Shown here in pieces: positions 3,264-43,288 of a stretch of DNA of 64,000 nt; position 1 is the first letter of the stretch; the number at the start of each line of letters is the position of its first letter. Origin of the DNA: Bacteroidales bacterium. Lineage in GTDB: Bacteria > Bacteroidota > Bacteroidia > Bacteroidales > WCHB1-69. Under the pieces are notes generated by a model. That model worked only from the letters and a program-made list of their open reading frames with translations, ran no database searches and was not told where the DNA came from. A program made the position numbers and the translations under genes. Location: positions 123,595 to 187,594 of the forward strand of contig JAFZKY010000037.1 of assembly GCA_017551725.1 (NCBI GenBank). The letters are read 5' to 3'.

Positions 3264-3271
3264 TACATTTG
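3264..3271 (+). promoter_or_regulatory. -7 promoter box (TACATTTG) for the flotillin operon
   Basis: TAnnTTTG match 70 nt upstream of the ATG at 3341, in a divergent intergenic region. Confidence 0.5.
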
Positions 3272-3340: not shown

Positions 3341-4858
3341 ATGAGTTCATACACTACCATTATCATTATTGCGGCCGTCATCCTGGGCTTTATCCTCATC
3401 ATCTCCTACGTTAAAACACCACCCAAAGAGGCCATGATCATCTCAGGTCTCTCCAAACAGCCCCGCGTGCTGATTGGCAAAGGCGGGTTCCGGATCCCGT
3501 TTTTCGAGCGTATCGACAAAGTGTTCCTCGGCCAGACCTCCGTGGACATCAAGACCAGCACCTCGGTGCCCACCAACGACTTCATCAACGTGATGGTGGA
3601 TGCGGTGGCCAAGATCCGCGTCATGAACACGCCGGAAGGTATCCGTCTGGCTGCCAAGAACTTTCTGAACATGTCGGAGAAGGACATCGCCGCGCAGTGC
3701 AAGGACTCGCTGGAGGGCAACATGCGTGAAGTCATCGGCGCCGTCACGCTGAAGAACCTCAACATTGACCGCGACGGCTTCTCGGACCAGATTGCCAAGA
3801 AGGCCGGTCCCGACATGGCCAAACTGGGTATTGAGATCATCTCCTGCAACATCCAGAACATCACAGACGAGGTGGGCTTGATCAAGGATTTGGGTGCCGA
3901 CAACACCTACGCCATCCGCAAGCAGGCCGCCATCACCAAGGCCGAGGCCGAGCGCGACATCGCCATCAAGCAGTCGGAAGCCAAGAAGGCCGCCAACGAC
4001 GCGCGCGTACTCAACGAGACCATCATCGCCGAAAAGAACAACGAGCTGGCAGTGAAGATTGCCGACCTCAAAGTGGTGGAAGACACGCAGAAAGCCAAGG
4101 CGGATGCCGCCTACATGATCCAGCAGCAGGAGCAGCAGAAGACGGTGAACGAGAAGACCGTGGAGGCCGTGGCCGCCAAGAGCATCCTCGAACAGGAGAA
4201 GCAGAAGGTCATCAACTCCAAGCAGGTGGAGGCCCAGATTGAAAAGGCGAAACGCGAGCAGGAGCTGACCGCCGAAAAGGTTAAGATTCAACAGAATACA
4301 TTGGAAGCTGAAATTCAGAAGAAAGCCGATGCCGACAAGTACAACACGGAGATCTCCGCCGCCGCCGAGCTGGAACAGCGCAAGCGCAACGCGGAAGCCG
4401 CCGCCTACGAGGCTGAGCAGAATGCCAAGGCAGTGCGTGCTCTGGCCGAGGCCGAACAGTACAAGATGGAGCAAGAGGCTATCGGTAAAAAGAAAATCGC
4501 CGATGCCGAGGCCTACGCCATCGAGCAGAAAGGTAAAGCCGAAGCCGAGGCTCTGCGCCTGAAGGCTGAGGCTTACAAGGAGTACGGCGATGCCGCCAAG
4601 GCCCAGATGGTCATTGAGAAGCTGCCGGAAATCGCCGCCAGCATCGCCGAGCCCATCGCCGCCATCAAGGACGTGCGCATCTACGGCAACGATGGCAAGG
4701 GTGTGGCCGAGATGTCGGGCAATGTGCCCACCGTCATCCGCCAGACTATGGATGTGGTATCCGACGCCACTGGCGTGAACATGGGTGAGATCATGAAGAC
4801 CACCACGCTGGAAGGCGCCGTGAAACGGACATCCCAGAAAAACAGCAATAACCAATAA
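3341..4858 (+). CDS. flotillin-like SPFH/band-7 family protein
   Basis: 505 aa with an N-terminal TM segment (IIIIAAVILGFILIISYV). An SPFH-like core follows (RIPFFERIDKVFLGQTSVDIKT..VDAVAKIRV), then a roughly 250-aa A/E/K/Q-rich coiled-coil region typical of bacterial flotillins. Confidence 0.85.
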   Translation: MSSYTTIIIIAAVILGFILIISYVKTPPKEAMIISGLSKQPRVLIGKGGFRIPFFERIDKVFLGQTSVDIKTSTSVPTNDFINVMVDAVAKIRVMNTPEGIRLAAKNFLNMSEKDIAAQCKDSLEGNMREVIGAVTLKNLNIDRDGFSDQIAKKAGPDMAKLGIEIISCNIQNITDEVGLIKDLGADNTYAIRKQAAITKAEAERDIAIKQSEAKKAANDARVLNETIIAEKNNELAVKIADLKVVEDTQKAKADAAYMIQQQEQQKTVNEKTVEAVAAKSILEQEKQKVINSKQVEAQIEKAKREQELTAEKVKIQQNTLEAEIQKKADADKYNTEISAAAELEQRKRNAEAAAYEAEQNAKAVRALAEAEQYKMEQEAIGKKKIADAEAYAIEQKGKAEAEALRLKAEAYKEYGDAAKAQMVIEKLPEIAASIAEPIAAIKDVRIYGNDGKGVAEMSGNVPTVIRQTMDVVSDATGVNMGEIMKTTTLEGAVKRTSQKNSNNQ

Positions 4859-4869
4859 TCCTGATTATC

Positions 4870-5106
4870 ATGAAAAAAATAATTGCGTTGCTGCTTTCTG
4901 CCTTGGGATTTTTTACAGCCTGTGACGGGCCCGAACTCATGTACGGTCCTGTTCCTCCTGAACATTGGACGACACCTGACGACACCATGTCGGTGATGTA
5001 TGGTCCTGGTTACAAAACATTTGTGCCGGACAGACAAATGGATGTCATCCAGTCAAAAGATGAAGCGTCCTCCGAAGATACGCCGTTCACGGACGAGTCC
5101 AAATAA
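4870..5106 (+). CDS. small putative lipoprotein (radical-SAM-associated type)
   Basis: 78 aa with lipobox LGFFTAC. The mature part carries two MYGP motifs (LMYGPVPPE, VMYGPGYK) and an acidic tail. It starts 11 nt after the flotillin gene and ends 6 nt before the radical SAM gene. Confidence 0.7.
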   Translation: MKKIIALLLSALGFFTACDGPELMYGPVPPEHWTTPDDTMSVMYGPGYKTFVPDRQMDVIQSKDEASSEDTPFTDESK

Positions 5107-5112
5107 CCGCGT

Positions 5113-6186
5113 ATGAAATTAGGTTGGAAGAAACGGGCCGCGCTGGAGTTGTATCGCAAGTACCACGCCATCGAGGTGCGGGAGCACACGCTGCAACAGC
5201 TCTTTTGGGAGTGTACGCTCCGTTGTTACCTCAACTGCAAGCACTGCGGCAGCGACTGTACCGCCAAAAGCAACACACCCGACATGCCGGCGGAGGATTT
5301 TATGGCCGTCATCGACAAGCTCACGCCGCACGTGGACCCGCACAAGGTAATGGTCATCTTCTCGGGTGGCGAGCCGCTGATGCGCACCGACTTGGAGCAG
5401 GTGGCGAAGGAACTCCACAAGCGCGAATACCCTTGGGGGATGGTAAGCAACGGCATGTTGCTGGACCGTGCCCGTTTGGATTCGCTGTTGCGTGCAGGCT
5501 TGCAATCCATCACCATCAGTCTGGACGGCTTCGCCGAGGAGCACAACGCCATGCGCGGCCATCCCGACAGCTTCGACCGGGCCGTGGAATCCATCCGCAT
5601 GATTGCGACGGAGCCGAACCTAACCTACGATGTGGTTACCTGCGTCACGCCAAAAACATACCCATATTTGGACCAGTTCAAGGAATTCCTGATCGGCATC
5701 GGGGTGCGGCGCTGGCGCATCTTCACCATCTTCCCGGCGGGACGCGCAGCGGACGACGACAGCTTACAACTTACCCACGAACAGGTGCAAGGGATTATGG
5801 AGTTCATCAAGCGTGCCCGACAAGAGGGTCGCATCCATTTGAACTTCGCCTGCGAGGGTTTTCTCGGCCGCTACGAAGCCGAGGTGCGCGACTATTTCTA
5901 CCATTGCGCCGCCGGCGTGAACGCGGCCAGCATCCGCATCGACGGCAGCATCTCCGGCTGCACCAGCATCCGGCACAACTTCCATCAAGGCAACATCTAC
6001 AAGGACGACTTCTGGGACGTATGGCAGAACCGTTTCCAGGAGTTCCGCGACCGCCGCTGGGCCAAGACCGGCCCGTGCGAGCACTGCGAGGCCTTCCGCT
6101 ACTGCCAGGGCGGCGGTATGCACCAGCGCGACGACGAGCGCCAACTGGTGGATTGTCTGTATTTGAAGTTGAATAGTATTCAGTAA
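5113..6186 (+). CDS. radical SAM protein with C-terminal SPASM/twitch-like Cys cluster
   Basis: 357 aa. CYLNCKHC is the CX3CX2C radical SAM cluster motif. GGEPL is a SAM-binding glycine-rich motif. The C-terminal CEHCEAFRYC (CX2CX5C) plus upstream Cys residues fit an auxiliary Fe-S (SPASM) domain. Confidence 0.85.
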   Translation: MKLGWKKRAALELYRKYHAIEVREHTLQQLFWECTLRCYLNCKHCGSDCTAKSNTPDMPAEDFMAVIDKLTPHVDPHKVMVIFSGGEPLMRTDLEQVAKELHKREYPWGMVSNGMLLDRARLDSLLRAGLQSITISLDGFAEEHNAMRGHPDSFDRAVESIRMIATEPNLTYDVVTCVTPKTYPYLDQFKEFLIGIGVRRWRIFTIFPAGRAADDDSLQLTHEQVQGIMEFIKRARQEGRIHLNFACEGFLGRYEAEVRDYFYHCAAGVNAASIRIDGSISGCTSIRHNFHQGNIYKDDFWDVWQNRFQEFRDRRWAKTGPCEHCEAFRYCQGGGMHQRDDERQLVDCLYLKLNSIQ

Positions 6187-6187
6187 T

Positions 6188-6294
6188 CAGGGATCAGGGG
6201 ACAGGGGTCAGTGATCAGTTAATAGTTGTCGTTCATTGTTCATTATTAACTATTAATTATTAATTGTTAATTATTAATTATTAATTGTTCATGG
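6188..6294. repeat. 7-nt-phased tract of about 15 units (CAG-phase heptamers, then AT-rich heptamers)
   Basis: CAG/TAG/YRT recur at 6188, 6195, 6202, 6209, 6216, 6223 ... 6286, exactly 7 nt apart: cagggat cagggga caggggt cagtgat cagttaa tagttgt cgttcat tgttcat tattaac tattaat tattaat tgttaat tattaat tattaat tgttcat. The tract starts 1 nt after the stop codon at 6184-6186. Confidence 0.8.
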
Positions 6295-6342
6295 TTGAAA
6301 TTCAAAACCCCACACCCGACATGCTATATGATTTTTTTTGAT

Positions 6343-6350
6343 TATTTTTG
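6343..6350 (+). promoter_or_regulatory. -7 promoter box (TATTTTTG)
   Basis: TAnnTTTG match 20 nt upstream of the preferred start at 6371. Confidence 0.45.
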
Positions 6351-8522: not shown

Positions 8523-9959
8523 ATGAAGAAGCTATATATTTTTTTAATGATGCTCGTGGGTGTCATGTTCTTCTCTTCCTGTGTAAAAGAGATAGTGGAC
8601 GACACCAGCATAAAGGTTATCACGGGTGACTTTATATCCAGATCCACAGAAATGACTGAATGCACGGCCACCATAGAGGCCGACAATGGCGATGCCATAT
8701 TGCAGCGCGGCATCTGCTACGGGTCCCGACCTTTGCCGAGTTTAGAACGCGAAAACGGCTATTCGGAAGGTTATTCATACAGCACGAACAATGGAAAAGG
8801 TGCCGGCACATTTACCGCAGTGTTGAAAAACATTCCCGAGTACAGTACAGTACACTACCGCGCATACGCCAAGACAAAAAAAGGGGTGGTATATGGAGAG
8901 GACAAGACATTTGAAATAACGGATAAACCCCGAGGAGTGATTACCGTTTATGCATCGCAATGGAGTCTCCCGGAATCTGTCGGGGTAAATGCCGTCTTGA
9001 GAAACACCAACACGTGGGGAAATGTCTATTACGATTACTGTGGTTTCATCTTCTCTACGGATCCGGATTTCAACTCCTTCGAAAAATTAGAGGCCGGCTG
9101 GTCATACACTCAAGGTACAAACCTGCCATTCAACGGAACACTGACCGGTTTGGATAAAGAACAGACCTATTATGTAAAGGCTTACATCATTTATTCTGGC
9201 ATGACCATGTACAGCGACAACACAGTCACACTGCAATATACAGGTGTTACCTGCCCACCCACTGTGCAGGATCGCGATGGCAACACTTACAGCACCGTGC
9301 AGATTGGCAGCCAATGTTGGATGAAGGAGAACTTGCGTACCACACACTACAGCACGGGGGGAAGTATCACGGATTTGACAAACAACACCTCCTCATGGTC
9401 AAGCACAACAGGGGGGGCGTACTGCTATTACGAAGGCAATGCAAGCAACAGGTCGAATTACGGCCTGTTGTACAACTACAAGGCTGTAGAGACCGGTAGT
9501 CTCTGTCCCGAAGGATGGCATGTACCCACCTCCGATGAGGTATTTACCACATTAAGCAACTCCATTTCCACGACAATAGGCAGCACATCGGTGGGTGGTG
9601 CCATGAAAACCACAGGCACGTCCTACTGGAATTCTCCTAACACAGGTGCCACAAATTCTTCGGGCTTTTCAGCACGTGGAGGCGGCTATCGTAACAATTC
9701 GGGCACCTATTCGGAACTGAAACAGTCGGGAGTGTTCTGGACAAGTTCCAATTACAACGGCACCTATTCATACAACTATATGTTAAGCTACGACCAGGGT
9801 GATTTGTATCATTATGGAACCGCATCCTATGATTATGCCATGCACCGTAATTCCGGCCTTTCCGTACGCTGCCTGAAGAACAACAACAAGAATGATGCCA
9901 ATGAAAAAAGCTATGAACAACCTGCAACAAACAGCGCCGTCAAAGCCGTAGTGGAATAG
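8523..9959 (+). CDS. lipoprotein with C-terminal FISUMP (Fibrobacter succinogenes major paralogous) domain
   Basis: 478 aa with lipobox FFSSC. The C-terminal half carries the FISUMP signature: DRDGNTYSTVQIGSQCWMKENL .. GLLYNYKAV .. CPEGWHVPTSDE .. GFSARGGGYR .. GLSVRCLK. Confidence 0.85.
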   Translation: MKKLYIFLMMLVGVMFFSSCVKEIVDDTSIKVITGDFISRSTEMTECTATIEADNGDAILQRGICYGSRPLPSLERENGYSEGYSYSTNNGKGAGTFTAVLKNIPEYSTVHYRAYAKTKKGVVYGEDKTFEITDKPRGVITVYASQWSLPESVGVNAVLRNTNTWGNVYYDYCGFIFSTDPDFNSFEKLEAGWSYTQGTNLPFNGTLTGLDKEQTYYVKAYIIYSGMTMYSDNTVTLQYTGVTCPPTVQDRDGNTYSTVQIGSQCWMKENLRTTHYSTGGSITDLTNNTSSWSSTTGGAYCYYEGNASNRSNYGLLYNYKAVETGSLCPEGWHVPTSDEVFTTLSNSISTTIGSTSVGGAMKTTGTSYWNSPNTGATNSSGFSARGGGYRNNSGTYSELKQSGVFWTSSNYNGTYSYNYMLSYDQGDLYHYGTASYDYAMHRNSGLSVRCLKNNNKNDANEKSYEQPATNSAVKAVVE

Positions 9960-19932: not shown

Positions 19933-22335
19933 TTACTCTCTAACATACACTCTCGGGACGCGTTGCGAGATTCTTGTCATCAGTTCATAGCTGATCAGGC
20001 CGGCGGCTTTGGCCATGTCGCCCACGGTGTTGCCCTCGCCATAAACCACCACCTCATCGCCCTCATGGACATTCAATCCCGTAACATCAAGCATGCACAT
20101 GTCCATGCAAATCTTCCCGATGACCGGCACTTTCTGTCCCTGGATGACCACGGTGCCTTTCCCGTTCCCGAGCTCGCGCGGGTATCCGTCGGCGTAGCCA
20201 ATCGGGATGATGGCCACCTGCGTGTCGTGCGTGAGGCGGAAACTGCGGTTGTAGCCAATGGTCTCGCCAGCGGCTATCCTCTTCACCTGCGTCACCACTG
20301 TCTTGAGCGTCACCACGTTATGGAGCTTTTCGGCCACCTCTGGAATCTCGGAGCAGCCGTAGAGCCCGATGCCCAGACGCACCATCTCGAATTGCGACTC
20401 CGTGAAGCGGATGATGCCGGCACTGTTCAGGATGTGGCGCAGAATCGGATAGTCAAACGCCCCGATTAACGGGTCGGTCATTTGCTGGAAGAGGTCGATT
20501 TGATGATGTGTGTAGGCATCTTCCGAGGGATCCTCGGCGGCGGCCAAATGTGAGAAGACAGAGGCCACATGCAGCTGCGGCACCGACTGTATCTTCTGGA
20601 TCAGTCGCGGCACATCCTCCAAGTCGAAGCCCAGGCGGTGCATTCCCGTATCGAACTTCAGATGGATGTTGAACTGGCGGATTTCAGGATGTTTCTGCAA
20701 TACATTCACCAGCTCGTCCAGATAGTAGAAGTTGAAAATTTCGGGTTCCAGATTATGCTGTACCATCACATCAAAACTGTGCGCCTCCGCACCCAGCACA
20801 ATGATGGGGGTGGTGATGTGACGCTTGCGCAGACGCACGCCCTCGTCGGTGTAGGCCACGGCTAAATAATCCACACCATGGTGCACCAAATCATTGATAA
20901 TCTCCGCATCGCCCAACCCGTACGAATGGGCCTTGACCATCGCCACCAACTTGGTGTCGGGCTTCAGGAATGAGCGATGGAAATTGAGATTGTGTACCAA
21001 GGCCGGCAAATCGACATGAAGGATGGTGAGGTGCGTCTTGTGCTGCAACCTGCTGACTACCCGTTCAAAATGGAAGCTGCGGGCACCTTTCACCAGGATG
21101 GTTTCATACGAGATGGGTATTTGCTGCAATTCTGCGAGAAGGGTGGCGGTATCCTTGAAAAACCATTGCGCCGGACAGTCGAAGCAATGGGCGTGCTCGC
21201 ACAGGTGCGCGCCCACGGCCAGCAGTTTCGTAATATCATGTTGCTGCAAACGGCGGTTCAGTTCCCGGTAATCCTGATCCGACATTTTACCAATCTGCTC
21301 AAAATCGGACAGTATCAGCGTTTTATGGTCCATCTGCGTCTGCGTGTCCATGAAATCGAGCGCGGCGTTGAGTGAGTTGGCGTCCAAACTGTAGGTGTCG
21401 TTGATGATGACGGAATGATTGCGACCTTCCAGAATCTCGGTACGCATTTTTATACGGGTCAGGCGCGGAAGACGTTCCCGAATATCCGCCGGCTGACAAC
21501 CAAGTTCCAAGGCTGTAACAATCACGTGCAACGCATTTTCCACGGAGGCAGCATCCAAGAACGGGATCACATAACGCTCATGAGCCAGCTCCACCACCGT
21601 GGCATCCCCTTCCGCATGACGGTGTTCCACGGGATATGCCGCCGAGGCACTACCCCATGATACCTTTTGAAGATGGGCGTATTCGGGCTGGGCAAGCATT
21701 TCCAGCACCATTTTGTTGTCATCGTGGAAAATCAGTTTTTCACAAGTCTTGAAAAGTTGCAGTTTTTCCGCAATTTTCTGCCGTTCGTCACGGAAAAATT
21801 GGGCATGGGCCATACCGATGTTGGTGAGGATTCCGATTGTGGGCCGGATGATGTCGGCCAGCTGCTGCATTTCTCCGGGTTTGGAGATGCCAGCCTCAAA
21901 GATGGCAAGGTTTTGCTGATCCGACATCTGCCACACCGACAACGGCACGCCCAGCTGGGAGTTGTAGCTGTCGGGGCTTCGCACAATGTTGAAATCATCC
22001 GCCAGCAGGGTGGCCAGCCACTCCTTGACGATGGTCTTGCCGTTGCTGCCGGTGATGCCGATAACGGGATAGGAGAAGCATTGCCTGTGCGCGCGAGCAA
22101 TGGCCTGCAACGATTCCACCGGATTGGAAACCACAAAGTTGCGCACACCCATCTGCTGTAGTTGGGGGATGTATCGGTGGCCGTCGTTTTTATCCGTCTT
22201 GATGGCAAAAAAGAGCGTCTGCTCCGGATGCACCACCTTCCGGCTGTCGATGCACAATTCCGAAATCTCATCCTGGTCGCTGGCCACAACCAGATTCTCG
22301 GGATTGACGATAGAATACAATTCGGAAACCTTCAT
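19933..22335 (-). CDS. bifunctional UDP-MurNAc-tripeptide--D-Ala-D-Ala ligase (MurF) / alanine racemase (Alr) fusion
   Basis: 800 aa. The N-terminal half has the Mur ligase P-loop GITGSNGKT. The C-terminal half has the alanine racemase PLP site (AMVKAHSYGLG) and ..GYADGYPR.. This fusion is a known Bacteroidota architecture. Confidence 0.9.
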   Translation of the reverse strand: MKVSELYSIVNPENLVVASDQDEISELCIDSRKVVHPEQTLFFAIKTDKNDGHRYIPQLQQMGVRNFVVSNPVESLQAIARAHRQCFSYPVIGITGSNGKTIVKEWLATLLADDFNIVRSPDSYNSQLGVPLSVWQMSDQQNLAIFEAGISKPGEMQQLADIIRPTIGILTNIGMAHAQFFRDERQKIAEKLQLFKTCEKLIFHDDNKMVLEMLAQPEYAHLQKVSWGSASAAYPVEHRHAEGDATVVELAHERYVIPFLDAASVENALHVIVTALELGCQPADIRERLPRLTRIKMRTEILEGRNHSVIINDTYSLDANSLNAALDFMDTQTQMDHKTLILSDFEQIGKMSDQDYRELNRRLQQHDITKLLAVGAHLCEHAHCFDCPAQWFFKDTATLLAELQQIPISYETILVKGARSFHFERVVSRLQHKTHLTILHVDLPALVHNLNFHRSFLKPDTKLVAMVKAHSYGLGDAEIINDLVHHGVDYLAVAYTDEGVRLRKRHITTPIIVLGAEAHSFDVMVQHNLEPEIFNFYYLDELVNVLQKHPEIRQFNIHLKFDTGMHRLGFDLEDVPRLIQKIQSVPQLHVASVFSHLAAAEDPSEDAYTHHQIDLFQQMTDPLIGAFDYPILRHILNSAGIIRFTESQFEMVRLGIGLYGCSEIPEVAEKLHNVVTLKTVVTQVKRIAAGETIGYNRSFRLTHDTQVAIIPIGYADGYPRELGNGKGTVVIQGQKVPVIGKICMDMCMLDVTGLNVHEGDEVVVYGEGNTVGDMAKAAGLISYELMTRISQRVPRVYVRE

Positions 22336-34639: not shown

Positions 34640-37600
34640 ATGGCTATGATTAAAAAATTACTCTCTACTCTCGGAGTGATCATCCTTTTCACAAGCATGG
34701 CATTTTCACAATCCTCTACCATCAAAGGTAAGGTATTGGACCAAGCGGGAGAGCCTTTGGCGTACACCAAGGTGTTCTTGAAGATTGGCGACAAGGTTGT
34801 GAACATGGGTATGGCGGATGACAAAGGAGACTACTCAATGTTCGGTGTGGAACCTGGAACGTACGATTTGACAGCCGACGCCCAGATGACCTGTAAGAAA
34901 TCGCAGACCAAGACCGACATCAAAGTTGGTTCCAGCCAGGTGATGTTCATTGACTTCACCATTGACTGTACCAACGATGTGCAGGAAGTCATCATCAAAT
35001 ACGAACCGCCCGTGTTCGACCCGGACAACACCAGTTCCACGAGCCGTATCAGCGGTGACAACGTGCGTACAACCCCTGGCCGTTCCGTGACCAGTGCCTT
35101 AGCCAACCTGGAAGGTGTGTCCAGCGTGGATGGAGCTATGTCATCCGTTCGTGGTAACCGTGCCGACGGTCAGCAGACCATTATCGACGGTGTGCGTGTG
35201 CGTGGTAACGGTAGTGTTTCCATGGCATCCATCGAAGAGGCCCAGCTGATTCAAGGTGGTATTCCCGCCGAGTATGGTGACGGTACCTCCTTCACGGTCA
35301 TCACCACCAAGTCTGCTCCGAAGGACTTCCACGGATCCTTGGAGTTACGAGGTTCCATCGATGGCTACAACAACTTCCTCGGTGCCGTGTCCATTTCCGG
35401 TCCCCTGTTGAAAGGCAAGACCAAAAACGACCCCACCCGCATCGGTTTCCTCTTCAGTGGGGAAATCTCTTATGACCAGGATTCCAGACCGTTGAGAGGC
35501 GGCTACTGGGTGGCCAACGACGATGTGATTGAGGACATTATAAACAACCCGCTCCGTTACAACCCGACCAGCATTGGTGCCTGGTATCAGGAAGCCTGCT
35601 ACCTCACCAGCGAGTCGTTCCACAAGGAGCGTGTGAAGAAGAACGCCGGCACATGGGATTATCTCGGCCAGTTGAAATTCGACTTCGTTCTGGGCAAGAA
35701 GCACAACATGCGTCTCTCCGTGGGCGGATCATACGAATACTTGAAAGGCAAATCCTGGGGTTTAGGCTACGCCCTGTTCAAACTCGAGACGCCTACAAGC
35801 ATCAACAACACCCTGCGTTTGAACGCCCGTTTGAACCACCGCGTGTTCACCGACACCACCGGCAAGGCTGCATTGAAGAATATCATGTACGACATCAACG
35901 TCAACTACACCCAGTTCAACTCCCTCTCCTACGCCTCGCAGCATAAGGACCGCCTGTTCGAATACGGCTATATCGGCAAATTCACCACCCAACGCAAGAA
36001 AGGCTATTCTGAACGCAAAGACGATCTGCAGATTTCCTGGGAGGGCAGTTCCATCGTCGTTCATGACGCTCGTGAGTTTGAAGGCTGGCAGGATTCCCTC
36101 GTGACCTTCAACATCAACCCGGAATTCAACTGCAACCCCATCCTGGCCCAATACACGCTGAATTTCATTGAAAACTATCCTGTGGAAGACCTGCACACCT
36201 ATCTTGGCAGCAACTATCCTATCGACCTTAACCTCTATCAGCAGTTCGGTGCTCTCCGTAACGGAGACTCTCCCGACGCCATTTATTCTCCGTACCTGTA
36301 CTATTCTCCGGGTACAGTTCTTGGCAGCTACAGCAAGAGCCAGACCGAGCAGTTCGGTGTCAAGGCCAGCATCTCCATGAACGTGAAGAACCACGAACTC
36401 AAGTTCGGTTACGACTTCGAAAAACTGACCTATCGTGGATACGGCATCGCCTCCTATTCTCTGTGGCAGCTTATGCGTACCGAAACCAACAAGCATATCT
36501 CCGAGTTGGACAAGGAGCATCCCATCATTGAAGCCCGTTATGATGCCGATTATGAAAGAGAACTCATTTATGTGGATTATGACCGCTTGAACGTGCTGGA
36601 TGATCAGACTGTCTTCGACCGCAACCTGCGCCGTTCCCTCGGCCTGGATCCTGACGGTTCCGACTGGATTGACATTGACAACCTCGACCCCACGGCCTTC
36701 AACATCAACATGTTCTCCGCCGAGGAACTGCTCACGGGAACCTCTTCCGGTTCCAACTCCCTGGTCAGCTATTACGGCTATGACTACACGGGCAAGAAGA
36801 ACCACAAGAAGACCACCATCACCGACTTCTTCGATGCAATGGATAAGAACGGCCAACGCTCCTACAACATTGGTGCTTACGAGCCCATCTACATGGCTTT
36901 CTATCTGCAAGACAAGTTCTCCATCAACTCCCTGTTGTTCAACATCGGTCTTCGTGTTGACCGCTTCGACGCCAACCAGGAAGTGTTGAAAGACCCGTAT
37001 TTGTTCCGCGAAGCCTATACCGTCAAGGACATCCGCAACCTCAACAGCACGATCAAATTCGCGGGCAATGTCGAAGACAACTGGGTGGTCTATTATTCCG
37101 GTACCGATAACTACATGAGCGAGGAAGGCATCGCCGGCAACGAGTTCAACTCCACATCCATTGTGGGTTATCGTAACGGCGACACCTGGTACAACGCTGC
37201 CGGCCAAGAGGTGGTTGACCCTGAATCCGAACTGTCACTCTATGTGAACGGTCCGATCCTTAAAAACGAAATTGACAAAGAAAGAAACACGAAGGTTGAA
37301 TCCGCCGCATTCGAGAAATACAAAGCTCAATGGTCTGTCATGCCGCGTATCTCCTTCTCCTTCCCTGTCTCTGACAACTCCCTGTTCTACGCTCACTACA
37401 ACATCATCACCTCCCGTCCTACCAACCTGCAGATTTCCCCCGTTGACTACCTGTTCATCCACAAGCGCAATTCCGCCAATGACATCGTCAACAACCCGAA
37501 CATGAAACCGCAGCAGAGTATCGACTATGAAATCGGTTTCCGTCAGAAAATCGGCAACAAGTCCTCCATCAGTATCAGCGCCTACTATTCCGAGAAACGT

Positions 37601-38449
37601 AACCAGATTCAGGCCTACCGCTTCTCCGGTGCATATCCGACCACCTATTATTCTTATCAGAACATTGACTTCGGAACAGTGCAAGGTTTCACGTTCGCCT
37701 ATAAGATGAACCGTACCAAGAACCTCACTCTTTCCGCCAACTACACATTGCAATATGCCAAGGGTACCGGTTCCAGCACGACATCCCAGCTTTCCATTCT
37801 TGCTGAAGGACAGCCTAACCTGAGAACCCTCACCAACCTTTCCTTCGACCAGAGACACCGTATCGGTATCAATTTGGACTACCGCTTCGAGAGCGGCGTG
37901 GACTACGATGGACCGAAGAAAGAGAAGACGGTCATGGTTGACGGCAAGCCGACCACAAAGACCATCCAATGGTTGGCCAACACGGGATTCTCCCTGTTGT
38001 TCTCCGCCGCTTCCGGCACGCCCTACACCCGTTCCGCCACACCGTACTCCATCACCGGTATCGGAACCTCCCAGGTGTCTGGTTCCATCAACGGCTCCAA
38101 CACTCCGTGGCAGTTCCAGTGTGACTTCCGTATTGACAAGACTTTCGTCTTCAATTTGAACAAGAATGCCAAGGACAAAGACGGCAACGCCAAATCCGCG
38201 AAGCCGGGTTATGTGACCGTCTATGTTGATATCGAAAACCTGTTCAACTTCAAGAACGTGATTTCCGTTTACGACTACACGGGCAATCCGGATGACGATG
38301 GTTTCATCTCCTCTGCAGAGTATCAACAGGTGATCAACTCCCAGGTCTATGTGCCGGGCTTCATCAACTACTACACGATGCGCGTTCAGAACCCCTACAA
38401 CTACAGCCGTCCTATCCGTGCCAGCTTAGGCTTACAATTCGGTTTTTAA
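34640..38449 (+). CDS. oversized TonB-dependent-receptor-like outer-membrane protein (CarboxypepD_reg-like domain + plug + roughly 1000-aa barrel)
   Basis: 1269 aa with a signal peptide (..FTSMAFSQ). STIKGKVLDQAGEPLAYTKVFL..DDKGDYSMFGVEPGTYDL is a carboxypeptidase-regulatory-like fold. Plug-like blocks are ISGDNVRTTPGRSVTSALANLEGV and IIDGVRVRG..IEEAQLIQGGIPAEYGD. The C-terminus is ..ASLGLQFGF. No SusD-like gene follows. Confidence 0.75.
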   Translation: MAMIKKLLSTLGVIILFTSMAFSQSSTIKGKVLDQAGEPLAYTKVFLKIGDKVVNMGMADDKGDYSMFGVEPGTYDLTADAQMTCKKSQTKTDIKVGSSQVMFIDFTIDCTNDVQEVIIKYEPPVFDPDNTSSTSRISGDNVRTTPGRSVTSALANLEGVSSVDGAMSSVRGNRADGQQTIIDGVRVRGNGSVSMASIEEAQLIQGGIPAEYGDGTSFTVITTKSAPKDFHGSLELRGSIDGYNNFLGAVSISGPLLKGKTKNDPTRIGFLFSGEISYDQDSRPLRGGYWVANDDVIEDIINNPLRYNPTSIGAWYQEACYLTSESFHKERVKKNAGTWDYLGQLKFDFVLGKKHNMRLSVGGSYEYLKGKSWGLGYALFKLETPTSINNTLRLNARLNHRVFTDTTGKAALKNIMYDINVNYTQFNSLSYASQHKDRLFEYGYIGKFTTQRKKGYSERKDDLQISWEGSSIVVHDAREFEGWQDSLVTFNINPEFNCNPILAQYTLNFIENYPVEDLHTYLGSNYPIDLNLYQQFGALRNGDSPDAIYSPYLYYSPGTVLGSYSKSQTEQFGVKASISMNVKNHELKFGYDFEKLTYRGYGIASYSLWQLMRTETNKHISELDKEHPIIEARYDADYERELIYVDYDRLNVLDDQTVFDRNLRRSLGLDPDGSDWIDIDNLDPTAFNINMFSAEELLTGTSSGSNSLVSYYGYDYTGKKNHKKTTITDFFDAMDKNGQRSYNIGAYEPIYMAFYLQDKFSINSLLFNIGLRVDRFDANQEVLKDPYLFREAYTVKDIRNLNSTIKFAGNVEDNWVVYYSGTDNYMSEEGIAGNEFNSTSIVGYRNGDTWYNAAGQEVVDPESELSLYVNGPILKNEIDKERNTKVESAAFEKYKAQWSVMPRISFSFPVSDNSLFYAHYNIITSRPTNLQISPVDYLFIHKRNSANDIVNNPNMKPQQSIDYEIGFRQKIGNKSSISISAYYSEKRNQIQAYRFSGAYPTTYYSYQNIDFGTVQGFTFAYKMNRTKNLTLSANYTLQYAKGTGSSTTSQLSILAEGQPNLRTLTNLSFDQRHRIGINLDYRFESGVDYDGPKKEKTVMVDGKPTTKTIQWLANTGFSLLFSAASGTPYTRSATPYSITGIGTSQVSGSINGSNTPWQFQCDFRIDKTFVFNLNKNAKDKDGNAKSAKPGYVTVYVDIENLFNFKNVISVYDYTGNPDDDGFISSAEYQQVINSQVYVPGFINYYTMRVQNPYNYSRPIRASLGLQFGF

Positions 38450-38476: not shown

Positions 38477-41400
38477 ATGAAAAACAGTAACAAAATTTTC
38501 TGCTTGACGCTCCTGATGGTCTGCATGGTATTCGGTACCGTGCGAGCCGAGAAAGTAAAAGGAGTTCGTAGATCCTCCTCACCCAAAGCGGAATCGGCGA
38601 CCTGTCTTCCGGCAAGTAACTCCAATGAGCTTTCGGTGAACAACGTACGTGCGTACATTGAAACCGGTGGTACGATGTGGTTCAAGGAAGTGGCCGAATA
38701 CGAAGTGCCCAAGGGATCCGGCAAAACCTCCATGTTCTCCGCAGCTTTGTGGATCGGTGGTCTGGATGCCAACGGCCAGTTGAAATTGGCTGCCGTCCGT
38801 TTCCGCCAAGTCGGCGACGACTACTGGACCGGACCTCTGAAAATCACGGGTGCCGGCACAACGCAATCTGAATGTATCAAGTTTGACAAACTGTTCAAAA
38901 TCTCGCGTGCGGAAGTGGATAACCACATTTCCAGTTTCAGCACCAGCGGCTACGTGACCCCTGCCAGCATTCTTAACTGGCCTGCCCACGGCGATGAAGG
39001 GTATTCCTACTATCTGGCCCCCTTCAAAGATGTGAACGTGAACGGTGTTTATGACCCGGAAGCCGGTGACTACCCGTACTATGACATCAACAACGACCTC
39101 TGTCCCTGGACGGAAGACAACATCGCCGCTGCAGCTGCCCATGAGCTGCCGAGAACACCCGAGGACCTGTGGATGGAATACCGCAATTATGGTGGCTCCG
39201 GTTCTGGTGAATTCCAGTATGACTGGAGACGTTCCAACGGTATGATTTATGCCGACCACGTGTTGAAAGGCGATGAAACCCTTTTCTGGATTTTCAACGA
39301 CAACGCCGGCGCCCACACCGAGTCTCAAGGTAGCCCCATCGGCTTGGAAATCCGCGGACAGTGCTTCGGATTCTCCACCAACGACGATCTGAACAACATG
39401 ACATTCTACTCCTACGAGATTATCAACCGTTCCACCTATACGCTGACGAACACGTTCTTCTCCCAATGGGTTGACCCCGATTTGGGTTATGAAAAAGACG
39501 ACTACGTAGGTTGCGACGTGGCTCGTGGTTTGGGTTACTGCTACAATGGTTCCAACGTGGACGGTACAGGCCAAACCAAGGCATACGGCGACCAACCGCC
39601 AGCGGTGGGTGTGGACTTCTTCCAAGGCCCCTACATGGATCCTGACAACCGCGACAACCCTAAATTCAACCCTGACAGCGCCTCTGTTCCTGGATATTGC
39701 AAAAAATTCCTCGATGATGAATTCGACCAGATGGCCATCAACGGTGTGAACTTCGGCGATGGCATCGTGGACAACGAGCGTTTCGGTATGAGAAGATTCG
39801 TGTATCACAACAACGACAACTCCGTGGTGGGTGACCCTGACGTGGCATTTGAATATTACAACATGCTGCAGGGTATCTGGAAAGACAACACCAAGATGCG
39901 CTACGGCGGAAACGCCCACTACACAGTAGGCGGTAACGGTCCTGAATGTGACTTCATGTTCCCCGCTCTGACGGACGTCTGTAACTGGGGTACGAAAGGT
40001 GAGGATCCTTCCGCTGCCACGTATGGTGCCGACGGATGGACGGAAGCCAATGTGGGCAACGCCCCCGCTGACCGTCGTTTCATGCAGTCCGCAGGCCCCT
40101 TCACGTTGAGACCGGGTTCTGTGAACTACATCACCGTTGGTATTCCATGGGCACGCGCTTCCCAAGGTGGCGCACAGGCTTCCGTGGAATTGCTGAAATT
40201 GGCCGATGATAAGTGCCAGTCGCTCTTCGAGAACTGCTTCAAAACCCTCGACGGCCCGTGGGCACCGGATTTGACCATCCGCGAACTTGAAAACCAATTG
40301 GTCATCTATATCTCCAACGAGAACAAAAACAGCAACAACTACCACGAAACCTACTTCGAATTGGATCCGCAGATTTCCAGAACACTGTCCACCTCCACGT
40401 TTGAAAAGGTGTACGACACATTATACGTGTATGATGTGAACGGAAATCCTGACACGGTAATCACCTCCAACATTGTAGCCGTCACCAAAGAAGACACGTT
40501 GAGCACCGAACAACGTCGCTATTACTTTGAAGGTTATCAGATTTACCAATTGGCAAACTCTTCCGTCAGCGCCACCGACCTGAACGATCCGAACAAGGCT
40601 ATTCTGATAGCCCAATGCGATATCAAAAATGGTGTAGGACAGATTGTGAACTGGGTTTACAATGAGGCTGTTGGAACATCTGTTGCCACGGAAATGGTGA
40701 ACGGCAGCGACCAAGGCATCTTCCACTCTTTCGTCGTGAAAGAAGACAAGTTCGCCACTGGTACGAACAAAGCGCTGGTGAACCACAAGGAATACTATTT
40801 CATGGCCATCGCTTATGGTTACAACCAATACAAGGAATTCAAACTGGATGCCGACTATCTTGACGGACAAAAGACACCGTATCTGGCCGGTCGTCTCAAC
40901 ATCGATGTTTACACTGGTATTCCGCACAAGTCCTCCGGCACTATCCAGAACAGCGTCTATGGCGATCAACCTATGATCACCCGTATTGAAGGACAGGGCA
41001 ATGGTGGTTTCTTCTTGGATATGACGGACGAATCCCGTCAGAAAATCTTGGAGAACAACACCTTCAACGACATTCAATACAAGAACAACTACGGTCCTCT
41101 GAATATCAAGGTGGTGGATCCGTTGCAGGTGAAACCTTACGACTACACCATCCGTCTGCTGCCCAACGATGTGGACAATGATGTGAACGACCAGACGGAA
41201 TGGCAATTGGTCATCAGCGACGAGGTTCCCGATGCCGAATTGGAAGAATTGGGCATTGAACGTGTTTCCAAAGCTGCCATGCCAATCAGCATGACCAATG
41301 AGGAATTGTTCCTCGACCTTGGTATTTCCATCTCGATCATCAACGACAACTTCAAGATTTATCAGAAGAATCTTAATGATTATGTGGCCGACAGCTTGGG

Positions 41401-43288
41401 CTTCAATTACAGAACCCTTACCTGGTACGGGCAGGTTGACCTTGTGGGTGCGACCATCGACTATGGTGACGGTCTGCCTTGGCTGACGGGTGTTGCCGAT
41501 ATTGAAGGTGACTATCCCGCCAACTGGATTCATGCTGGTAGCCAAGAAGCCGGAAAATGGTATGACTGGTACTCTCCCGATGAGGAACAACAGCATGGAG
41601 AGCCGGGTCAGGAAGGTGCCATGAACAAGTATTACGAATGGCGTACCGAAGACATGTGCTGTATCATGGACAAGGGAACACTGAACGAATCTGAGCCCAC
41701 CCGTGGATTCAAAGACCCGAACCAGCAGTTCGAGGGTATTTTGAACGGCACGTGGGCACCTTACGTGCTCTCATCCCCGTACGATGGAGGTCCTCAGGCC
41801 AAATACATCGTACCGGACAACAAATTCTATGATGAGGATGAAGGCAGTCCGGCCCCGGCATATTTCGACTTCACTCAGTTGAAAGGTTCTATCAGCAACC
41901 CGGGTTATAACCAGACGCTGACCAACCTGTACTCTGTTGACATCGTGTTGACTCCAGACAAGAGCCTTTGGACACGTGCTTTGGTATTGGAGGCTGGTTC
42001 AAGTCCTGAGTCAGAGAATTATAAAGTCAAACAGAACTTCAATGGCAAGACCTACACCAACTATCGTCATGAGCCGAAGACTTGTCCTTCCGTGGACAAG
42101 GATGGCAATCCTTACACAGGCACCGACAATGCTGCCAGCAACAACCCGGATGACCCGAACTACATCGGTGCTACCGGTTATGGTTGGTTCCCGGGCTATG
42201 CCATCAACGTGGAAACCGGCGAGCGTTTGAACATCATGTTCGCAGAAAACTCCCTGGATCCTTATAACAATGGTAGTGACATGATTTTCAACCCGACGAA
42301 TGTGTATGCTTTCTACCGTAATGCCGAAACACAAGAATTCATTCTGGATGAGGAAGGCAATCCTATGGGCATGAACCAAAGCACATTCAACATGATTCGT
42401 GACAGTTATGGTCAATATGCCATCATGTATGGTGAGCCTCAAAATGGTGGACGCCATTATGTTTACATCTGTGGCAGTTCCGGCAATACCTGTAGTATGT
42501 ATTACCGTTCCAGCACCCGTAAGCGTAACTTCAACGATTCCGACAAACAAACATCAAGCCAAGGTGTCAAACATGGTGGATATTTCACCGGTTCTGACGG
42601 AGGATACTATCCTTGGTACGATTGCGGTTCGTATGATAATGGCAGATGGCTGGGTGAAAAGTTCAAAACATTCGTCAACAAGAAAGACATGAACGATCCG
42701 GCCCGTATACTGATGAAGATGCAGTTGTTCAACAATGTCATGTACACCAGCATCCCGATGCCTTACATGATGATGGAAGACAACTGGCTCTCCTGCGATG
42801 CCACCATCAAGATTCGTGTTTCCCGTCCATACCTGAGATACTCTTCTCGCTGGTTTGATGATGCAAGCACGGCACCGAACGCTGACCAGAACGACGGTTA
42901 TCCTATGTACAAGTTCACCACAAAGAACCTCGCTCCGACCAAGTCGGAAACTGCAGAAGAGGTTCAGACTGTGCTTGACGACATCAACATCGTTCCGAAC
43001 CCGTACTACGGATTCTCCCAGTATGAGCAGACAGCTCTGCAGAACTACGTCCGCATCGTGAACCTTCCTGAAAAGTGTACCATCTCCATCTACACGGTCA
43101 ACGGTACACTCATCCGGACAATCACGAAGGGTAACACGGATTCTTACGTACAATGGGATTTGAAGAACCACGCCAACATCCCGATTGCCGGCGGTGTTTA
43201 CATCATCCATGTGAAAGCCGATGGATTCGGCGAACGCACGCTCCGGTTCTTCTGCGCAATGCGCCCAACAGACTTGAATGGTTTCTAA
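38477..43288 (+). CDS. giant secreted hypothetical protein (1603 aa) with T9SS C-terminal-domain-like end
   Basis: Signal peptide MKNSNKIFCLTLLMVCMVFGTVRA. About 24 Cys residues and several Asp/Asn/Gly-rich stretches (VNGVYDPEAGDYPYYD, DKDGNPYTGTDNAASNNPDDPN). I recognise no catalytic motif. The last roughly 100 aa are VPNPYYGF..VRIVNLPEKCTISIYTVNGTLIRTI..WDLKNHANIPIAGGVYIIHVKADGFGERTLRFF, which resembles T9SS CTD beta-sandwiches. Confidence 0.7.
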   Translation: MKNSNKIFCLTLLMVCMVFGTVRAEKVKGVRRSSSPKAESATCLPASNSNELSVNNVRAYIETGGTMWFKEVAEYEVPKGSGKTSMFSAALWIGGLDANGQLKLAAVRFRQVGDDYWTGPLKITGAGTTQSECIKFDKLFKISRAEVDNHISSFSTSGYVTPASILNWPAHGDEGYSYYLAPFKDVNVNGVYDPEAGDYPYYDINNDLCPWTEDNIAAAAAHELPRTPEDLWMEYRNYGGSGSGEFQYDWRRSNGMIYADHVLKGDETLFWIFNDNAGAHTESQGSPIGLEIRGQCFGFSTNDDLNNMTFYSYEIINRSTYTLTNTFFSQWVDPDLGYEKDDYVGCDVARGLGYCYNGSNVDGTGQTKAYGDQPPAVGVDFFQGPYMDPDNRDNPKFNPDSASVPGYCKKFLDDEFDQMAINGVNFGDGIVDNERFGMRRFVYHNNDNSVVGDPDVAFEYYNMLQGIWKDNTKMRYGGNAHYTVGGNGPECDFMFPALTDVCNWGTKGEDPSAATYGADGWTEANVGNAPADRRFMQSAGPFTLRPGSVNYITVGIPWARASQGGAQASVELLKLADDKCQSLFENCFKTLDGPWAPDLTIRELENQLVIYISNENKNSNNYHETYFELDPQISRTLSTSTFEKVYDTLYVYDVNGNPDTVITSNIVAVTKEDTLSTEQRRYYFEGYQIYQLANSSVSATDLNDPNKAILIAQCDIKNGVGQIVNWVYNEAVGTSVATEMVNGSDQGIFHSFVVKEDKFATGTNKALVNHKEYYFMAIAYGYNQYKEFKLDADYLDGQKTPYLAGRLNIDVYTGIPHKSSGTIQNSVYGDQPMITRIEGQGNGGFFLDMTDESRQKILENNTFNDIQYKNNYGPLNIKVVDPLQVKPYDYTIRLLPNDVDNDVNDQTEWQLVISDEVPDAELEELGIERVSKAAMPISMTNEELFLDLGISISIINDNFKIYQKNLNDYVADSLGFNYRTLTWYGQVDLVGATIDYGDGLPWLTGVADIEGDYPANWIHAGSQEAGKWYDWYSPDEEQQHGEPGQEGAMNKYYEWRTEDMCCIMDKGTLNESEPTRGFKDPNQQFEGILNGTWAPYVLSSPYDGGPQAKYIVPDNKFYDEDEGSPAPAYFDFTQLKGSISNPGYNQTLTNLYSVDIVLTPDKSLWTRALVLEAGSSPESENYKVKQNFNGKTYTNYRHEPKTCPSVDKDGNPYTGTDNAASNNPDDPNYIGATGYGWFPGYAINVETGERLNIMFAENSLDPYNNGSDMIFNPTNVYAFYRNAETQEFILDEEGNPMGMNQSTFNMIRDSYGQYAIMYGEPQNGGRHYVYICGSSGNTCSMYYRSSTRKRNFNDSDKQTSSQGVKHGGYFTGSDGGYYPWYDCGSYDNGRWLGEKFKTFVNKKDMNDPARILMKMQLFNNVMYTSIPMPYMMMEDNWLSCDATIKIRVSRPYLRYSSRWFDDASTAPNADQNDGYPMYKFTTKNLAPTKSETAEEVQTVLDDINIVPNPYYGFSQYEQTALQNYVRIVNLPEKCTISIYTVNGTLIRTITKGNTDSYVQWDLKNHANIPIAGGVYIIHVKADGFGERTLRFFCAMRPTDLNGF

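Follow-up and report, generated by a model that had tools for sequence, protein, structure and literature searches.

Radical S-adenosylmethionine (SAM) enzymes with a SPASM domain that are encoded next to a lipoprotein are catalogued in NCBIfam as the families TIGR04133 (enzyme) and TIGR04134 (lipoprotein), both hypothetical equivalogs without assigned chemistry. A second group for comparison is that of the tyramine spliceases (PlpX/PlpA, PcpX, RhaX and RcsX; TIGR04103), radical SAM/SPASM enzymes that excise tyramine at X-Y-G, where the natural X is Met or Leu (PMC10533398, PMC11414181, PMC11626197). Natural splice sites include Met-Tyr-Gly and Leu-Tyr-Gly, and some substrates carry two sites (PMC10533398, PMC11414181, PMC11626197, PMC9811515). 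Binary splicease systems without an RRE (RiPP recognition element) protein exist, and structure prediction placed the motif in the active site for PlpX, PcpX and RhaX (PMC11414181). According to a review, a 2022 survey screened the radical SAM/SPASM proteins of UniProt for neighboring genes with YG motifs, and 27 enzyme-substrate pairs were confirmed (PMC10849128). No relevant account of the TIGR04133/TIGR04134 pair was found in our literature search, whose coverage did not extend to the survey of Scott et al. 2022 (Chem); a link between TIGR04133 and the spliceases could be on record already, or could have been tried and dismissed. Here we describe a member of this pair in a 64,000-nucleotide stretch of DNA, hereafter the window, from a rumen Bacteroidales bacterium (GenBank assembly GCA_017551725.1, contig JAFZKY010000037.1, positions 123,595 to 187,594 of the forward strand). 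Gene conservation delimits a predicted functional unit of two genes, a TIGR04133 maturase and a short-form partner lipoprotein. It leaves out the flotillin gene upstream, which an earlier prediction made from the same letters (the original prediction) had included. Our overall reading is that the lipoprotein of this two-gene unit would be modified at Tyr-Gly sites in the cytoplasm and then exported, with splicing as the leading option for the chemistry. We give this reading as a whole a probability of roughly 55%.

The enzyme (357 aa, 5113-6186; coordinates here and below are those of the window, + strand unless noted) is a clear member of TIGR04133 (rSAM_w_lipo). It scores 577.7 bits against a cutoff of 425, with E=6.9e-174, and the match extends over residues 6-352 of 357. 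The best scores with other NCBIfam models are 60-130 bits, where the cutoffs of these models are 265-725; the secondary matches include TIGR04053, the heme maturases AhbD and NirJ, the GDL-peptide maturase, MftC, the splicease family TIGR04103, PqqE and others. Because these scores fall far under their cutoffs, the protein is not a known cofactor enzyme. The original prediction had raised cofactor-biosynthesis enzymes and sulfatase maturases as other possible groupings. The enzyme stands apart from the former (heme maturases), and of its 77 NCBIfam matches, the best 25 contain no sulfatase-maturase model. The radical SAM motif CX3CX2C (C38-x3-C42-x2-C45, 5224-5247) is invariant in the alignment, and seven further Cys residues of the enzyme are conserved. 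The SPASM auxiliary-cluster region (5905-6156) has the pattern C265-x12-G-x4-C283, C322-x2-C325-x5-C331, C348. Gly335, itself invariant, replaces the fourth Cys of canonical CX2CX5CX3C; another invariant residue is His337. Pfam Radical_SAM is matched, and Pfam SPASM (37.1 bits) covers C322-x2-C325-x5-C331; the CX3CX2C motif and the C-terminal CX2CX5C read earlier from the sequence are thus both present, the latter within SPASM. Neither a signal peptide nor an N-terminal RRE-like domain was found in the enzyme. An AlphaFold2 (AF2) model built with 120 homologues has a predicted local distance difference test score (pLDDT) above 90 across the domain, and its closest folds in the PDB are SuiB, CteB, SkfB, BlsE, DesII, PqqE and ChlB. 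The modeled fold is thus placed nearest to a group led by peptide-modifying radical SAM/SPASM maturases, with some small-molecule enzymes mixed in. No solved splicease was found by a sequence search of the PDB, in which the closest chains are generic radical SAM/SPASM enzymes. The ratio of non-synonymous to synonymous substitution rates (dN/dS) of the enzyme gene is 0.08-0.11 against the loci of two close relatives (L001 and L002).

The candidate substrate is the product of a 78-aa pre-lipoprotein gene at 4870-5106. Its signal peptide, MKKIIALLLSALGFFTA/C (4870-4923), has an LLSALGF h-region typical of the family and the lipobox FTA/C, with the lipid-accepting residue predicted at Cys18. MYGP site 1 (residues 24-27, 4939-4950) has the context ELMYGPVPP and is kept in L001-L003 and L081, while MYGP site 2 (residues 43-46, 4996-5007) has the context SVMYGPGYKTF and is kept in close relatives; both sites are retained in all five close relatives. 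A variable, acidic, low-complexity tail follows (5008-5103), which differs among the closest relatives; its 33 residues contain 8 Asp/Glu and 4 Lys/Arg. The mature lipoprotein has 61 residues. The earlier description of a lipobox protein with a mature part of about 60 residues, two MYGP motifs and an acidic tail therefore holds in every part. The small open reading frame (ORF) is under purifying selection, with dN/dS of 0.23 and 0.19 against its orthologues in L001 and L002. A pseudogene, or a remnant of a longer form, was considered and ruled out: dN/dS is about 0.2, the gene is conserved in five relatives, and no room is left for a remnant.

The 78-aa protein gives no Pfam match and no NCBIfam match even at E<=10, TIGR04134 (cutoff 39.8 bits) included, and its homologues form three clusters among 5.8 billion proteins. 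Its relation to the catalogued partner comes from the N-terminal module, which runs from the signal peptide through Y-G-x-P. With a hidden Markov model of this module made from 33 long forms, the 78-aa ORF is the only significant match among the 329 ORFs of the window (E=2e-8, runner-up E=0.14). Site 1 fits the family motif x-Y-G-x-P, and site 2 aligns with MYGTPYxTFxVKGKV of the long forms, where their beta-sandwich begins. After the second MYG the protein has 33 more residues and no beta-sandwich of the CarboxypepD_reg type. By these alignments the window protein is a short-form variant of the catalogued TIGR04134 partner. Short and long forms occur together in the close relatives L001 and L081; no long form was found anywhere in the 64 kb of the window. 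The locus thus resembles the TIGR04133/TIGR04134 pair in its full-length enzyme and in an adjacent lipobox partner with the same signal-peptide and x-Y-G-x-P motifs. It differs in that the partner lacks the beta-sandwich of about 100 residues that forms most of TIGR04134, has two Y-G sites and, together with the enzyme, sits behind flotillin. The original prediction named a catalogued pairing of this kind; the pairing exists as TIGR04133/TIGR04134 and the enzyme belongs to it, whereas the 78-aa protein is missed by the TIGR04134 model.

An enzyme-profile scan of species-representative genomes gave at least 594 stretches that encode a relative. We examined the top 80, which are all Bacteroidales; the window brings the number of loci to 81. 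A partner was called automatically as an adjacent lipobox ORF with Tyr-Gly in its first 60 mature residues. About 75 of the 81 loci satisfy this rule, with one partner ORF in 59 loci, two in 12 and three in 4, and small ORFs of this kind are thus conserved beside the radical SAM gene in relatives, as the original prediction requires. The other lipoproteins encoded at these loci (51) contain Tyr-Gly there in 14% of cases. The pair occurs in Alistipes, Tidjanibacter, Bacteroides, Phocaeicola, Parabacteroides, Prevotella and other genera. In L057, L061 and L062 (Phocaeicola and one Bacteroides locus) the order is reversed with the pair intact, the lipoprotein lying downstream. Among the six misses, two loci are almost without upstream flank, one of which (L063) has a truncated upstream ORF with Y-A. 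In another (L037) the partner was wrongly dropped by the filter, one has Cys-Tyr-Ala, and two have a second radical SAM gene and a different membrane protein. Partners of about 150 residues are bona fide TIGR04134 members (52-164 bits), and these long forms give weak CarboxypepD_reg matches over a beta-sandwich of about 100 residues. Partners of about 50-115 residues, that of the window included, have neither the beta-sandwich domain nor a TIGR04134 match.

Across the 95 partner proteins, Tyr and Gly are invariant (95/95). Tyr is preceded by Met in 58, by Glu in 19, by Cys in 10 and by another residue in 8; in the Tidjanibacter and Rikenellaceae forms this Cys is the lipobox Cys itself. Position +2 is mostly Val, Thr, Pro or Ser (the residues seen are V, T, P, S, M, Q, I, C, D, G and A, with Gly once), and position +3 is Pro in 66/95. 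Outside the Y-G motif the short forms are of low complexity and cannot be aligned. An invariant Tyr-Gly after a variable residue therefore stands out, on these alignments, as the sole conserved feature of the partners. MYGP had been proposed earlier as the site of modification. Its Y-G, usually with Pro to follow, is what the divergent partners share; its Met varies. Two other features were considered as general signals and rejected. An 'LGF' motif in the signal peptide occurs in 68/95 partners and in 0/51 other lipoproteins from the same loci, a contrast that is inflated because the partner set was partly selected on 'LGF'. As a universal leader-like recognition element, 'LLGF' is striking in Bacteroidales and absent from the lipoproteins of the distant loci L083, L085 and L088. 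Acidic residues that follow the lipobox Cys, taken as a surface-export signal, vary too much to predict the destination of the lipoprotein; 34/95 partners have none at +2 to +6.

A profile search of 1.84 billion representatives gave 719 clusters at E<=1e-30, many of them TIGR04133-like yet under the family cutoff (250-390 bits). Several of these enzymes adjoin a membrane-bound protein with a related motif: a 76-aa lipoprotein with AKYGPP and TKYGPP (L083), a lipoprotein with ITA/CYGPP and a beta-sandwich (L085), a lipoprotein with AT/CYGVY (L088) and a membrane protein with PPMYAPPP (L086). L090 has a downstream membrane protein with APLYGGPP and an upstream truncated ORF with PLYAPPV. One enzyme (P0193) is fused to a C-terminal segment containing AVIYGPPEM. 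Distant relatives thus retain Y-[G/A]-(x)-P-P beside the enzyme, in one case fused to it. The splicease family TIGR04103 is the second-best match (164 bits) of another relative, P0139.

The adjacency in distant relatives, the flipped gene order, the several divergent partners per enzyme and the natural fusion together point to Y-G (or Y-A) as the target of the enzyme. On this comparative evidence, the lipoprotein is the probable substrate and Y-G its probable site. The modification would take place in the cytoplasm on the unexported pre-lipoprotein, since the enzyme has no signal peptide and radical SAM enzymes, which are cytoplasmic, require SAM, a reductant and Fe-S clusters. Anaerobic sulfatase maturases, which act on sulfatases exported afterwards, provide a precedent. 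They are cytoplasmic radical SAM/SPASM enzymes whose target is a single residue of a short motif close to the N-terminus, modified before the protein is exported. The likeness is conceptual only, that of a cytoplasmic maturase acting on a short motif before export; the motif is C/S-x-P-x-R there and x-Y-G-x-P here, and both family and substrate class are different. In a second step a 5'-deoxyadenosyl radical would be made and the x-Y-G-x-P motifs, as suggested by their conservation, modified. In the window protein both MYGP sites would be targets, the first 7 and the second 26 residues past the lipobox Cys. As the lipobox predicts, the modified protein would then be exported via Sec, lipidated at Cys18 and cut by signal peptidase II, and the end product would be an acidic peptide of about 60 residues tethered to the membrane.

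For the chemistry itself, the single most likely outcome by analogy is a splicease-like reaction in which Tyr loses a tyramine equivalent, and we advance it tentatively. It is ranked first because a variable residue followed by invariant Tyr-Gly matches the published splicease target. Splicing would convert Met-Tyr-Gly to an alpha-keto-beta-methionine-Gly ketoamide. A ketoamide is an electrophilic group and a known protease-inhibitor warhead. The locus resembles the splicease systems in that a radical SAM/SPASM enzyme lies beside a substrate with X-Y-G and a variable X, and in that the window substrate has two M-Y-G sites, Met-Tyr-Gly being a proven splice site in spliceotides. It differs in that the window substrate is a lipoprotein with a Sec signal peptide, whereas spliceotides use a leader of the Nif11/NHLP type. 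The window enzyme also lies outside TIGR04103, and some relatives have Y-A. That TIGR04133 enzymes in general are lipoprotein-directed tyramine spliceases is a bolder claim, which we regard as doubtful; if it holds, Y-[G/A]-P-P in signal-peptide or transmembrane proteins of other taxa would be the target of a wider family. The peptide DGPELMYGPVPPEH is proposed as a synthetic substrate for the enzyme.

Several observations weigh against substrate modification at Y-G or against splicing. The enzyme scores 99.6 bits with TIGR04103 (cutoff 725) over residues 29-302 only, which is below its scores with the heme and mycofactocin maturase models, and sequence comparison does not place it with the spliceases. 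Y-A stands in place of Y-G in L023, L063, L086 and L090, and no statement on whether spliceases accept Y-A was found in the literature. Neither an RRE nor a Y-protein was seen. Among the distant relatives, no neighbor of the Y-G type was found in L087 and L091, and L082 has a D-rich lipoprotein cut off by the contig end, with Y-G absent from the 69 residues available. In an AF2 model of a fused precursor-enzyme chain, residues 16-77 with both MYGP sites have a pLDDT of 26-33 and do not dock, a weak negative because the run used a fused monomer rather than a multimer and no substrate alignment; the fusion modeled without any alignment has a pLDDT of 46.5.

The undocked motif would also fit an enzyme whose substrate is not a protein (but a cofactor, lipid or sugar), with the lipoprotein as a partner for binding, carriage or delivery and Y-G-x-P as a motif for binding or sorting. 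The small-molecule radical SAM/SPASM enzymes BlsE, DesII, AhbD and NirJ are indeed among the sequence or fold neighbors. However, the exported lipoprotein and the enzyme occupy different compartments, the short forms have no folded domain able to bind anything, and in P0193 the motif is fused straight to the enzyme. The up to three divergent partners per enzyme resemble the precursors of peptides that are made by the ribosome and modified after translation (RiPPs), and clustering of neighbors found no conserved third gene for a small-molecule pathway. We regard a non-protein substrate as quite improbable.

A closer competitor keeps the same substrate and site and changes the radical chemistry to a three-residue cyclophane, a C-C, C-O or C-S cross-link, epimerization or side-chain oxidation; a cross-link would run from Tyr to the residue at +2 or +3. 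SPASM enzymes carry out many peptide chemistries. The mycofactocin, PqqE, cyclophane (YhhB), ranthipeptide and sactipeptide models score the enzyme about like the splicease model, its top structural neighbors SuiB, CteB and SkfB are cross-linkers, and the Pro at +3 in 66/95 partners fits as well. On the other hand, the variable residue before an invariant Y-G is the splicease signature. Cyclophane motifs conserve an aromatic residue and the residue at +2, so a cyclophane is disfavored by the variable +2 position, which in one case is Gly, a residue without C-beta, and a thioether is disfavored by the lack of a universal Cys donor. We consider such other chemistry unlikely, and substrate modification at Y-G with splicing as the leading option is retained.

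The flotillin gene (3341-4858, 505 aa) is co-directional with the lipoprotein and radical SAM genes, with gaps of 11 nt (flotillin to lipoprotein) and 6 nt (lipoprotein to radical SAM). A Bacteroidetes-type -7 box, TACATTTG (3264-3271), lies 69 nt 5' of the flotillin start codon, and the next + strand -7 box is only at 6343. This arrangement is as first described. The motif count in the window is 24, compared with 25 expected by chance, so that -7 boxes are not enriched. A single promoter for the three genes is consistent with the lone -7 box, short of proof, and in this lineage the lipoprotein/radical SAM pair is probably read from the flotillin promoter. The protein has an N-terminal membrane anchor and matches Pfam Band_7 (79.7 bits) and Flot (37.8 bits), both over the gathering scores. 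It shares these two domains with bacterial flotillins (FloT/SPFH), but its NCBIfam FloT score of 237.6 is under the equivalog cutoff of 700.

The original prediction had joined the three genes in one membrane-microdomain system, in which flotillin would organize the modified lipoprotein, and the 11-nt gap and single upstream -7 box do imply co-transcription in this genome. The arrangement is also retained in L001-L003, rumen Bacteroidales metagenome-assembled genomes whose synteny with the window extends from the TonB receptor to where the radical SAM gene ends. These are the only loci among the 80 with tblastn matches to the window flotillin, and their radical SAM identity is at least 90%; in the remaining 77 loci, tblastn found no flotillin less than 5 kb from the enzyme. 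L081, with a radical SAM protein 86% identical, has no flotillin and has Fib_succ_major/type IX secretion system (T9SS) proteins upstream instead, and L004 (71% identity) has a different ORF upstream. When all neighboring ORFs are clustered, the enzyme and the lipoprotein are the sole conserved neighbors, which argues against a three-gene system. Since the linkage is limited to 3/80 loci and absent from L081, flotillin is best placed outside the conserved system. The link appears to be a recent, lineage-specific juxtaposition that lends no support to a microdomain function, and we consider the three-gene system very improbable.

Relatives of the TIGR04133/TIGR04134 pair are found in the common human gut genera Bacteroides, Phocaeicola, Parabacteroides, Alistipes and Prevotella. 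If tyramine is excised, abundant commensals would carry lipid-anchored proteins with beta-amino-acid ketoamides, which could serve as an anchored protease-inhibitor warhead or a covalent-capture site and would be a new chemistry of the bacterial membrane or surface. It would also mean backbone splicing of exported membrane proteins, not of secreted peptides, and protein-engineering tools would gain a compact substrate with two sites. Should the chemistry differ, the pair would still represent an uncharacterized protein modification in a major gut lineage.

Variants of the enzyme were seen in the wider family. P0193 (locus L089, 2001-3371) continues after IYGPP into a zinc-ribbon-like CxxC...CxxC end, and no separate lipoprotein gene was called within 2 kb of it. 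P0182, P0196 and P0246 are TIGR04133-like radical SAM proteins fused to a C-terminal domain of about 200 aa, whose H-x-H-P...S-x-x-D pattern resembles the JAB/MPN metalloprotease motif, and P0151, P0152 and P0162 have two radical SAM domains in tandem. Three Alistipes loci (L021, 3402-4990; L048, 3400-4981; L071, 3426-4985) have a second radical SAM/SPASM gene directly upstream of the TIGR04133 gene. This second protein (about 345 aa) has its best match, of roughly 100 bits, with GeoRSP/PqqE-like models and is accompanied by a membrane protein of about 175 aa with STGCGG..SCYDP.PP. These loci could be a two-enzyme variant of the system.

In the window, the lipoprotein and radical SAM genes are in the same frame, parted by a TAA stop and two codons (4870-6186). 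Read-through of this stop would yield a substrate-enzyme fusion resembling P0193, which is probably a coincidence. Short tandem repeats follow right after the radical SAM stop, with 4.7 copies of ATCAGGG (6186-6218) and an AT-rich 21-nt/7-nt array (6235-6289), and a further repeat stretch lies at 6329-6350 in the intergenic region 3' of the gene. Synteny with L001-L003 stops at about 6161, near these repeats, and this may be a rearrangement junction. Elsewhere, a 478-aa lipoprotein with a Fib_succ_major domain is encoded at 8523-9959, and related Fib_succ_major/T9SS-tail proteins flank the L081 cassette. In an 800-aa ORF (19933-22335, - strand), a Mur ligase middle domain is joined to the N- and C-terminal domains of a complete alanine racemase. 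A 1603-aa ORF at 38477-43288, with no Pfam match at E<=1e-8, lies directly downstream of a gene (34640-38449) for a 1269-aa TonB-dependent-receptor-like protein with an N-terminal CarboxypepD_reg domain.

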